A stretch of DNA of 24,000 nt, from positions 292,418 to 316,417 of the forward strand of contig MTLP01000042.1 of the NCBI GenBank assembly GCA_002009975.1. Direction: 5' to 3'. The notes below the pieces were generated by a model, which was not told the origin of the DNA, ran no database searches, and saw only the letters and a program-made list of their open reading frames with translations. Of the stretch, positions 21,242 to 23,446 are shown in pieces (within the stretch, counting starts at the first letter, position 1; every line of letters starts with the position of its first letter). This DNA is from Thermococcus sp. JdFR-02. GTDB taxonomy: Archaea; Methanobacteriota_B; Thermococci; Thermococcales; Thermococcaceae. The position numbers and the translations under genes are program-made.

Positions 21242-21281
21242 CCGAAAAGCTTTTAAAGTTTTCGCCGAAAAGCTTAAAAAT
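21242..21281 (+). promoter_or_regulatory. tandem BRE/TATA elements upstream of gar1 (CCGAAAAGCTTTTAAAG and CCGAAAAGCTTAAAAAT, 23 bp apart)
   Basis: The 11-mer CCGAAAAGCTT occurs at 21242-21252 and 21265-21275. Each copy is a purine-rich BRE (CGAAA) followed by an A/T TATA-like segment. Confidence 0.5.
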
Positions 21282-21303
21282 GAATTTTGTTTGGGGTGGG
21301 GCT

Positions 21304-21612
21304 ATGAAACGTTTAGGCAAAGTTTCTCATTATGCTAAACAAGGCTTCTTGATCTTACGCTCTAATTGGGCGCCTTCGTTAAATGACGTAGTTGTTGATA
21401 AAAATCTCAAGGTTATTGGAATAGTTAAAGACGTTTTTGGACCCGTTAAAATGCCGTATATAGCTGTAAAGCCTAAGGTAAGGAATCCAGAAGAGTTGGT
21501 AGGACAGATCTTGTATGTGGATAAGAGGCGTAAAGAGAAAGTGAGAAAGAAAAACAAACGAGAGAAGAAGGGAAAAAGAAGAAAACGCCCCGCCCCCAAA
21601 AAGAGGGGGTGA
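21304..21612 (+). CDS. gar1: H/ACA ribonucleoprotein complex subunit Gar1
   Basis: MKRLGKVSHYAKQGFLILRSNWAPSLNDVVVDKNLKVIGIVKDVFGPVKMPYIAVKPKV is near-identical to Pyrococcus Gar1 from memory, and a basic K/R tail follows. The likely start is ATG 21304 with SD GGGGTGGGG. The track start 21280 adds 8 non-conserved residues. Confidence 0.9.
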   Translation: MKRLGKVSHYAKQGFLILRSNWAPSLNDVVVDKNLKVIGIVKDVFGPVKMPYIAVKPKVRNPEELVGQILYVDKRRKEKVRKKNKREKKGKRRKRPAPKKRG

Positions 21613-21617
21613 ATTAA

Positions 21618-22538
21618 ATGCCTGCTGCTGAAGATGTTAAAAAATGTCCCGTTTGTGGATCCACCAAGTTAATTTTTGATCCTGAAAGGGGTGAAATAGT
21701 CTGTACAAGTTGTGGTTATGTCGTTGCGCAAAATATAATTGACACTGGACCCGAATGGAGAGCTTTTGATGCTAGCCAAAGAGAAAAGAGAGGGAGAGTT
21801 GGTGCTCCAATTACATATACAATTCACGATAAAGGACTCTCAACTATGATAGACTGGAAAAACAAGGACATTCACGGTCATGAGTTATCTGCAACTACAA
21901 GAGCTCAAATGTATCGTTTGAGAAAATGGCAAAGGAGAATTAGAGTTTCAGATGCAGCTGAAAGAAACTTGGCTTTTGCTTTGAGTGAATTGGATAGAAT
22001 GGCTTCTCAAATGGGATTGCCAAGAAATGTTAAGGAAATGGCAGCCGTTCTTTATAGAAAAGCAGTTATGGAGCACTTAATTAGAGGTCGCTCTATTGAA
22101 GGTGTCACAGCCGCTTGTCTCTATGCAGCATGTAGAATGGCTAAAGTACCAAGAACCTTAGATGAAATTGAAGAGGTCGCAAGAGTTGACAAAAAGGAGA
22201 TAGGAAGGAGTTATAGATTCATAGCAAGGGAATTAAACCTTAGATTACCTCCAACAAGTCCAATTGATTATGTCAACAGATTTGCAGATCAGCTTGGATT
22301 GAGTGAAAGAACCAAATCAAGGGCTATTAAAATACTCCAAGAGGCTATAAAGAAGGGATTGACAAGTGGTAGGGGACCTATGGGTGTTGCAGCTGCCGCT
22401 TTATATATAGCAAGTGTTCTTGAAGGAGAAAAGAGAACGCAGAGAGAAGTAGCTGAAGTTGCTCACGTTACTGAAGTTACAGTTAGAAATAGATACAAAG
22501 AATTGGTTGAAAAGCTTGGAATTAAGCTAAACATTTAG
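21618..22538 (+). CDS. tfb: transcription initiation factor B (TFB)
   Basis: N-terminal Zn ribbon CPVCGS..CTSCGYV, B-finger/linker GPEWRAF, and two cyclin-fold repeats (..[13 protein letters not shown].., ..[16 protein letters not shown]..). SD GGGGGTGA overlaps the gar1 stop. Confidence 0.95.
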
Positions 22539-22551
22539 TTTTTTTTCTTTT
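22539..22551 (+). terminator. oligo-T tract (T8 C T4) immediately after the tfb stop
   Basis: TAG TTTTTTTTCTTTT. It may be only partially efficient, because the next gene has no recognisable BRE/TATA of its own. Confidence 0.45.
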
Positions 22552-22612
22552 CACCAGATGAGGAAACAAACCCGTCGCCGATTGGTGACGAAAGGGGACC
22601 TCTCCGATGGTG
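22552..22612 (+). ncRNA. candidate C/D box sRNA (2'-O-methylation guide) with non-canonical boxes
   Basis: Layout: CACCA-G-[AUGAGGA]-13 nt-[CCGA]-UUG-[GUGACGA]-12 nt-[CCGA]-UGGUG. This gives C, D', C' and D in the archaeal order and spacing. A perfect 5-bp terminal stem abuts box D, and a 3-nt bulge (G,A,U) precedes the C-box GA. Hand-counted GC is 35/61 = 57% in an AT-rich intergenic context. Confidence 0.55.
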
Positions 22613-22617
22613 ATAGA

Positions 22618-23133
22618 ATGAGAATTGGAATATTAAGTGACACTCATTATCCAGACAAAACCTCTTACCTTCCTGATCTAATTTTTGATATTTTTGGGAG
22701 AAAAAAGGTTGAGCTTATTTTACACGCTGGTGATTTGACCGCTCCAAGTGTTAAAGAAACTCTTGAAGAAATTGCACCTGTTGTTGTAGTTAGAGGAAAC
22801 TTAGATTTACCAAGTTACCCAGAGGAGCAGGTGGTTGAAGTTGAGAAACTTAGAATTGGCATGATTCATGGACATCAGCTTTACCCTTTAGATACCCAAA
22901 CCCTAAAATATAAAGCGTTAGATATGGACGTTGATTTATTAATATTTGGACATACTCATAGGTTTTTCTTTGAGACTTATGAGTTTATGGAAAAAAGAGT
23001 GGCGATTTTAAATCCAGGTTCTCCAACTGTGCCGAGATTCAGTGATCCTACCTTTGTTGTCGGTGAAATTAAAGACAAAAAATTTGAGTTTGAGACCTTT
23101 AAACCTTGGGAGACACAATGGAAATATCCTTAA
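22618..23133 (+). CDS. YfcE/MJ0936-type metallophosphoesterase
   Basis: MRIGILSDTH (DxH), HAGD (GD), VRGNLD (GNxD), HGH, FGHTH (GHxH). The likely start is ATG 22618 with SD GGTGAT 3 nt upstream. The track start 22558 adds 20 Arg-rich residues that coincide with the sRNA candidate. Confidence 0.85.
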   Translation: MRIGILSDTHYPDKTSYLPDLIFDIFGRKKVELILHAGDLTAPSVKETLEEIAPVVVVRGNLDLPSYPEEQVVEVEKLRIGMIHGHQLYPLDTQTLKYKALDMDVDLLIFGHTHRFFFETYEFMEKRVAILNPGSPTVPRFSDPTFVVGEIKDKKFEFETFKPWETQWKYP

Positions 23134-23180
23134 AAAGCTTTAAAAATGAAAATACCAAAAATTAAGGAAGAGAATAGAAA

Positions 23181-23384
23181 TCAAGCCTTAATAGCGAGCT
23201 TAATATCCTCGGCTTTGACTGTCTTTCTTCCAGCGTGCTTTGCAAGCTCAACAGCCTTCTTAGCAATCTCAACAGCCTTCTCCTCGAGGTGCTCGGCTAA
23301 TACTTTTGCTGCCTCTTCGCTAACTCTTGCAGCACCTGCCTTTCTAATCAATCTATCAACTGGGGCAATTGGTAACTCAGCCAT
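23181..23384 (-). CDS. archaeal histone (HMf family)
   Basis: 67 aa. [67 protein letters not shown] is a canonical histone fold of Thermococcales histones A/B. Confidence 0.93.
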
Positions 23385-23446
23385 TTCCCCAACCTCCTAA
23401 AATTTTTTTTGTTAATATCTGCATTTTAATTTTTGAACAAAGGCAT

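Follow-up and report, generated by a model that had tools for sequence, protein, structure and literature searches.

A predicted C/D box sRNA gene of the sR52 lineage upstream of a metallophosphoesterase gene in Thermococcus sp. JdFR-02

The locus and the layout of the element

The window, which is the whole 24,000-nt stretch of DNA that was analysed, carries on its plus strand gar1, tfb and a metallophosphoesterase gene, and between the stop codon of tfb and the start of the phosphoesterase lies a 61-nt element laid out like a C/D box sRNA (Table 1). The sequence reads exactly as an earlier note on this DNA had described it, in its boxes, guides, linker and stem as well as in their coordinates. 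All 5 bp of the terminal stem are perfect, GA is intact in all 4 boxes, and the 3-nt bulge of the K-turn consists of G22557, A22558 and U22559. All positions of the sheared G.A/A.G pairs are intact as well, and the C/D pair deviates from consensus only at 3b:3n, which is G-C. The element is also GC-rich, as the same note had pointed out, at 57.4%, while the window is at 36.7% and the host genome (2.36 Mb in 44 contigs) at 38.1%. Folded as a free RNA, it has an MFE z-score of -3.5, with none of 200 dinucleotide shuffles folding as well, and in the free RNA a competing hairpin of CGUCGCC with GGUGACG across D' and C' is possible. A terminator-like match on the minus strand inside the sRNA was discarded, being just this D'/C' hairpin.

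Table 1. Features of the gar1-phosphoesterase locus, in window coordinates.
Feature	Coordinates	Strand	Remarks
gar1	21280..21612	+	Pfam Gar1; directly upstream of, and overlapping, sR52 in Pyrococcus
tfb (TFIIB)	21618..22538	+	Pfam TFIIB and Zn_Ribbon_TF; directly upstream of the element
T8-C-T4 spacer	22539..22551	+	between tfb stop codon and sRNA
Predicted C/D box sRNA element	22552..22612	+	61 nt, read directly from the sequence
Terminal stem, 5' strand CACCA	22552..22556	+	pairs with 22608-22612
Spacer G	22557	+	between 5' stem strand and box C
Box C AUGAGGA	22558..22564	+	consensus RUGAUGA; position 5 is G
D' guide AACAAACCCGUCG	22565..22577	+	13 nt
Box D' CCGA	22578..22581	+	consensus CUGA
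K-loop linker UUG	22582..22584	+	3 nt
Box C' GUGACGA	22585..22591	+	position 5 is C, opposite C of box D'
D guide AAGGGGACCUCU	22592..22603	+	12 nt
Box D CCGA	22604..22607	+	position 2 is C, pairs with G5 of box C
Terminal stem, 3' strand UGGUG	22608..22612	+	overlaps Shine-Dalgarno-like GGUGAU
Shine-Dalgarno-like GGUGAU	22609..22614	+	3 nt before ATG 22618
Metallophosphoesterase (Metallophos_2), true start	22618..23133	+	Pfam PF12850
84-aa ORF	23146..23400	+	directly after phosphoesterase gene; no Pfam match

The four-box layout was examined for specificity with a relaxed regular expression that allows any base at position 5 of boxes C and C' and at position 2 of boxes D and D', guides of 10 to 14 nt and a loop of 2 to 9 nt, on both strands of the host genome. 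This relaxed C/D scan, which the earlier note had called for, recovers the element as one of 29 matches, as against 0 in the reversed genome, so that the layout is highly specific and not a matter of chance. The host also encodes fibrillarin, Nop5 and L7Ae (matches to PF01269, PF01798 and PF01248, all above cut-offs). From what is known of the family, one would expect a K-turn at C/D and a K-loop at D'/C', both of which would bind L7Ae and then bring in Nop5 and fibrillarin. Fibrillarin would in turn 2'-O-methylate the rRNA partner of the guide nucleotide that is fifth upstream from box D or D'.

How the RNA is made can be approached from the surrounding sequence. By eye, no convincing BRE/TATA is present at the right distance, and a scan with a sigma-70 promoter model, which is not applicable to archaea, found nothing. 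Read-through from tfb (from gar1 in Pyrococcus) is the most likely source of the transcript, with the assembled RNP probably protecting the sRNA from trimming. The T8-C-T4 run could act as an oligo-T terminator, which raises the question of sRNA transcription; it is absent in the sister genus g5, where the distance from the tfb stop to box C is 7 to 12 nt, versus 22 nt in the host.

Family assignment and conservation

At gathering thresholds, Rfam gives no match anywhere in the window. A permissive search returns sR52 (RF01306) as the top match, with a score of 22.4 bits and an E value of 0.013 over 361 nt or 0.02 genome-wide; since this is well under the gathering score of 50, Rfam misses the element. 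It is the best RF01306 match of the host genome, and in the alignment the fit is almost perfect from box C' through the D guide to box D. Of the 9 Pyrococcus-genus orthologs described below, 5 likewise score less than 50 bits. The Rfam sR52 model is too narrow, in that it misses these 5 and all 8 orthologs in g5. The earlier note had not recognised this known family.

RF01306 was searched over 61 genomes of the family, with synteny then checked by tblastn, and a covariance model, R1, was made from an alignment, A1, of 17 orthologs. The R1 search finds 1 copy in the host and 1 in each genome of g2 (9/9), the genus that we take to be Pyrococcus, and of g5 (8/8), and each of these 17 orthologs is located directly upstream of the same phosphoesterase gene. 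Synteny thus places the element directly 5' of this gene in 3 genera (g1, g2 and g5). The order of genes is gar1-sRNA-Metallophos_2 phosphoesterase in Pyrococcus, and in g5 it is that of the window, gar1-tfb-sRNA-phosphoesterase. The core of the D guide, GGGGACCUC, is invariant in 17 of 17 orthologs, box C is AUGAGGA in 15 (AUGAAGA in P. abyssi and AUGAAAA in P. furiosus), and the sequence of the K-loop linker varies. The conservation of boxes and stem that the earlier note had proposed to look for in relatives is thus found, with covariation, in both g2 and g5.

Compared with Pyrococcus sR52, the host element is found at the same place in the genome, with gar1 upstream and the Metallophos_2 gene directly downstream, has the same D guide core and predicted 23S target, and uses the AUGAGGA/CCGA box variant that most Pyrococcus species share. 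It differs in that tfb separates it from gar1, C.C stands at C'/D', the distance from box D to the phosphoesterase start is longer by about 11 nucleotides, and the D' guide is unrelated, the one of the host being free-standing and matching 23S. The g5 orthologs (loci L010, L015, L016, L018-L020 and L026) have the gene order of the host and are identical to it in boxes C (AUGAGGA) and D (CCGA), in the core of the D guide and in the 3' 11 nt of the D' guide; they differ in having consensus boxes D' (CUGA) and C' (UGAUGA), a tfb stop that abuts the 5' stem with no T-rich spacer, and a phosphoesterase AUG that overlaps box D.

No true ortholog was found by the R1 covariance search in g3, g4 or g6. 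In g6 and g3, gar1-tfb-phosphoesterase is kept, with only a short plain spacer before the phosphoesterase, and in g4 what lies upstream of the phosphoesterase is a different neighbour, again without an ortholog. Matches of RF01306 and R1 in g3 and g6 at first looked like orthologs, and were ruled out by their different D' guide, targets and locus. These weaker matches constitute a second sRNA family, with the D' guide AACGUCAGCACG, and one of its members coincides with T. kodakarensis sR61/Tko-sR67, an RNA that is abundant and circularised in T. kodakarensis RNA-seq (PMC9014305). The two families have in common the C/D architecture, a similar-looking D guide (GAAGGGACUUCC in the second family) and U.U/G-C/A-U variation at box C5/box D2, where the second family shows U.U, G.U, G-C, A-U and A.C across genomes. 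The Tko-sR67-like family is no ortholog, because it has another D' guide, other predicted 23S targets and another locus, and because it coexists with the sR52 ortholog in g5. Its guides match 23S sites about 36 nt apart, and in Thermococcus it lies on the strand opposite to gar1, at a distance of about 1 kb (loci L053-L064; G029:C1:2070053-2070120 (-)).

Box variants and predicted rRNA targets

The earlier note had argued that the departures of the boxes from consensus are coordinated rather than random. Both phylogenetic covariation and the genome-wide co-occurrence of box letters bear this out. In A1, box C5/box D2 (columns 20/63) is G-C in 12 distinct sequences and A-U in 2, those of P. furiosus and P. 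abyssi, and is never unpaired; a terminal-stem pair (columns 12/68) is variously C-G, A-U, G-C and G-U across orthologs. The covariation score of the alignment is 0.294, versus 0.148 +/- 0.021 for shuffles, none of 500 of which reaches that value, and slid controls with the 3' partners moved by 1 to 3 columns score 0.05 to 0.12. Among the 29 host candidates, box C5/box D2 is U.U in 21, A-U in 4, G-C in 2, G.U in 1 and C.U in 1, with none U.C, C.C or A.G, and box C'5/box D'2 is U.U in 14, A-U in 5, U.C, C.C and A.G in 3 each and G.U in 1, with none G-C or C.U. A C at position 5 of box C' is always partnered by a C at position 2 of box D'. Both combinations of the host element, G-C at C/D and C.C at C'/D', thus recur in other host candidates, and coordinated box deviations are a general property of these sRNAs and no peculiarity of this one. 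The second candidate with the same AUGAGGA/CCGA pair is at C11:28138 (-), and those sharing C.C at C'/D' are at C20:17408 (-) and C5:8041 (+). For the U-to-C changes in D'/C', a second explanation beside C.C pairing is possible, namely that they strengthen the competing hairpin of the free RNA.

The non-consensus letters sit at the 3b:3n position of the predicted K-turn, which is strongly U:U in box C/D K-turns (PMC5689011). G-C at this position is typical of the K-turn of U4 snRNA, and such G-C K-turns are unfolded in Mg2+ alone and fold only on binding of an L7Ae-family protein (PMC4382518). The C/D pair of the host element would resemble the K-turn of the U4 snRNA 5' stem-loop in having a Watson-Crick G-C after two sheared G.A pairs; the RNA class and the protein partner context are different, and the analogy is a structural one for the variant position only. 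The variability of K-turns has been tabulated by Lui et al. in 2018, who also noted that non-canonical K-motifs give rise to false negatives of models (PMC6009581). What the present locus shows is compensatory change at 3b:3n (U.U, G-C, A-U) in guide RNAs.

For the guides, a complication is that the host assembly, though rated 99.99% complete in its 44 contigs, is without 16S or 23S genes: blastn with the rRNA operon of a relative found only tRNA-like pieces and one 60-nt fragment on contig C43. Hence the targets were scored on relatives' rRNA only, using the rRNA operons of five of them. There the complementarity that the earlier note had predicted for rRNA is found for both guides, in the correct N+5 register. 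The D guide pairs with 23S CGAGGUCCCC over 9 contiguous bp (positions 2-10), and the guides of g5 and P. abyssi over 10 bp. In 23S CGAG[G]UCCCC, the bracketed G is the nucleotide at N+5 and the predicted target; it corresponds in alignment to E. coli G1983, and the five Thermococcales 23S sequences do not differ at this site. Shuffled guides do as well in 14 of 300 cases for the host version and in 7 of 300 for that of g5. We reckon this target to lie just 3' of helix 71, in domain IV. Helices 68-71 of 23S are a known methylation hotspot (PMC4644070).

The D' guide has 10 contiguous bp with g5 23S, at positions 2-11 (11 bp in g5), and only 1 of 300 shuffled guides does as well. Its predicted target is G2943 (G009 numbering) in 23S GAC[G]GGUUUG, in the 3' domain and roughly at E. 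coli 2828. This guide is common only to the host and g5, and among the relatives examined the target sequence is present only in g5 rRNAs; the helix that contains it (G009 ~2925-2950, L031) is CCCG/CGGG in g5 versus CGGG/CCCG, with the strands swapped, in Pyrococcus and g3. Guide and target thus track each other by lineage. The Pyrococcus D' guide was tested in two genomes, P. furiosus and P. abyssi, and matches rRNA convincingly in neither. Nor do the host tRNAs, the other class of target that the earlier note had suggested, offer anything convincing, the best match being 8 bp with tRNA-Tyr. Literature searches on the published target of sR52 and on PF1791/PF1792 yielded nothing useful.

In Pyrococcus the D' guide lies in coding sequence. 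In 8 of the 9 genomes, box C and the D' guide are read in the gar1 frame, as a Lys/Arg tail, and box D' provides the UGA stop. In the ninth (L009) the gar1 stop is the UGA of box C; the overlap of gar1 and sR52 is found at about 1440-1560 of loci L001-L009. Where the D' guide is free of coding, it thus has a lineage-specific 23S match, and where it shares sequence with the gar1 tail, no match to rRNA is convincing. Moreover, because gar1 runs into sR52 and box D supplies the A of the next AUG, a single Pyrococcus sRNA overlaps two ORFs, being wedged between the upstream one, whose stop codon it shares in most Pyrococcus genomes, and the downstream one, whose start codon it shares.

The phosphoesterase start and the standing of the element

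Synteny, conservation of the guide, rRNA complementarity in the N+5 register and covariation of the stem and of C5/D2 all back the C/D box sRNA call made in the earlier note. Very probably, 22552-22612 (+) is a C/D box sRNA gene that is the positional ortholog of Pyrococcus sR52, and a diverged, predicted methylation guide of the sR52 lineage. The same note had also warned that automated annotation would bury the element in a CDS, and this is what has happened. The ORF listing begins the downstream gene at ATG 22558, which is in frame with ATG 22618, and public calls include a 191-aa form (NCBI, JGI/IMG, Logan and MetaClust) as well as one of 171 aa (JGI/IMG only). Positions 1-153 of the PF12850 profile match residues 21-173 of the ORF from 22558, and because the Pfam domain begins at residue 21, the start is assigned to 22618. 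It is preceded by GGUGAU, complementary to the 16S 3' end ...GAUCACCUCCU of the relative G009, and the overlap of this motif with the 3' stem strand is as that note had it. The ATG in box C is no start codon, and the 20-residue N-terminal extension is an artefact. The annotation needs two corrections: the missing RNA gene should be added, and the phosphoesterase CDS, as publicly called, should be shortened by 60 nt.

The relatives indicate how the false extension came about. In both g2 and g5, the AUG of the phosphoesterase takes its A from the end of box D and is completed by UG, and the orthologs have N-termini such as MVRIGILSDTH and MLIGVLSDTH. The frame of the box C ATG is closed in g5 by the UGA of box D', and the U-to-C change in box D' of the host removes that stop. 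About 11 extra nucleotides in the host supply GGUGAU and the start at 22618, so that the false extension was made possible by the U-to-C change together with this insertion. In the host, the AUG of box D is in another frame, where it begins an ORF of four codons (AUG GUG AUA GAA UGA, 22607-22621) whose stop overlaps the real start as AUGA; from its sequence it looks like the remnant of the ancestral start after the ~11-nt insertion. Three close relatives, seen as protein N-termini from metagenome assemblies, keep the long frame open, a sample with an ascertainment bias, since a call of 191 aa presupposes an open frame. Their few amino-acid changes fall in the loop, at the 5'-most and least critical position of the D guide and after the sRNA, and the box codons are unchanged. 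From one of them, in which L is replaced by S, we infer a base change in the linker codon, UUG to UCG.

The open frame from 22558, the public 191-aa calls and the open frames of the close relatives are what would speak for the element being coding, with translation from ATG 22558 giving a basic 20-aa N-terminal extension. This is extremely unlikely, given that position 1 of the Metallophos_2 profile falls on residue 21, that all g5 and g2 orthologs start M(V/L)xxG with the box C frame of g5 running into a UGA in D', that no Shine-Dalgarno precedes 22558 whereas GGUGAU precedes 22618, and that conservation follows RNA rules, namely boxes and stem covariation, rather than codon rules. The non-consensus boxes could also be taken to mean that the element is a decaying relic of sR52, with box-like motifs but no assembly or guiding. 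In favour of this are the departures from consensus in 3 of the 4 boxes, the low RF01306 score and a D-guide duplex shorter than that of g5; but the sheared pairs are intact, the deviations are confined to 3b:3n and recur both in other host sRNAs and in orthologs, the terminal stem is perfect, and close relatives keep the box codons. Decay to a relic is hence very unlikely.

It is also conceivable that the element acts mainly in cis, as a K-turn that binds L7Ae in the 5' leader of the phosphoesterase mRNA and would control its translation or processing, with guiding secondary or lost. The 3' strand of the stem overlaps the Shine-Dalgarno, and where the AUG shares the A of box D, as in g2 and g5, sRNA excision and translation would be mutually exclusive on a single transcript. 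L7Ae-dependent translational control via K-turns is documented in archaea (PMC5539422, PMC6298567), and the same idea has been published for 5' overlaps of sense sRNAs with ORFs (PMC6009581). Yet in a bare regulatory K-turn there would be no need for a second motif (C'/D'), for 12-nt spacers or for a guide core that is invariant over three genera and matches a conserved 23S site, and since g6 and g3 keep gar1-tfb-phosphoesterase without the element, the gene does not need it. A mainly cis-acting role is thus unlikely, and we prefer the sR52-type guide RNA. A further reading is that the phosphoesterase gene and its sRNA constitute an either/or unit that has been conserved, in which RNP assembly and excision from a gar1 or tfb read-through transcript would destroy or mask the translation start. 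In the host, the ~11-nt insertion would have partly uncoupled the two, but because the terminal stem still contains the Shine-Dalgarno, the output could still be set by L7Ae occupancy. Coupling to translation is plausible because the K-turn stem takes in the Shine-Dalgarno and, in relatives, even the start codon, and it is not essential because genera without the sRNA keep the phosphoesterase gene. On the whole, we regard the either/or unit as improbable.

The value of this locus is modest, consisting of a correction to annotation and an illustration of known principles. None of the three themes that it brings together (compensatory change at 3b:3n, the dependence of the D' guide on its coding context, and an sRNA wedged between two ORFs) should surprise a specialist, because all are already in the C/D sRNA literature.

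The leaders of L7Ae genes are known to carry autoregulatory K-turns. Elsewhere in the host genome, at C23:19756 (+), a four-box candidate (AUGAAGA...CUGA...GUGAUGA...CUGA) is located about 140 nt upstream of an L7Ae-family gene (C23:19954-20232) on the same strand.
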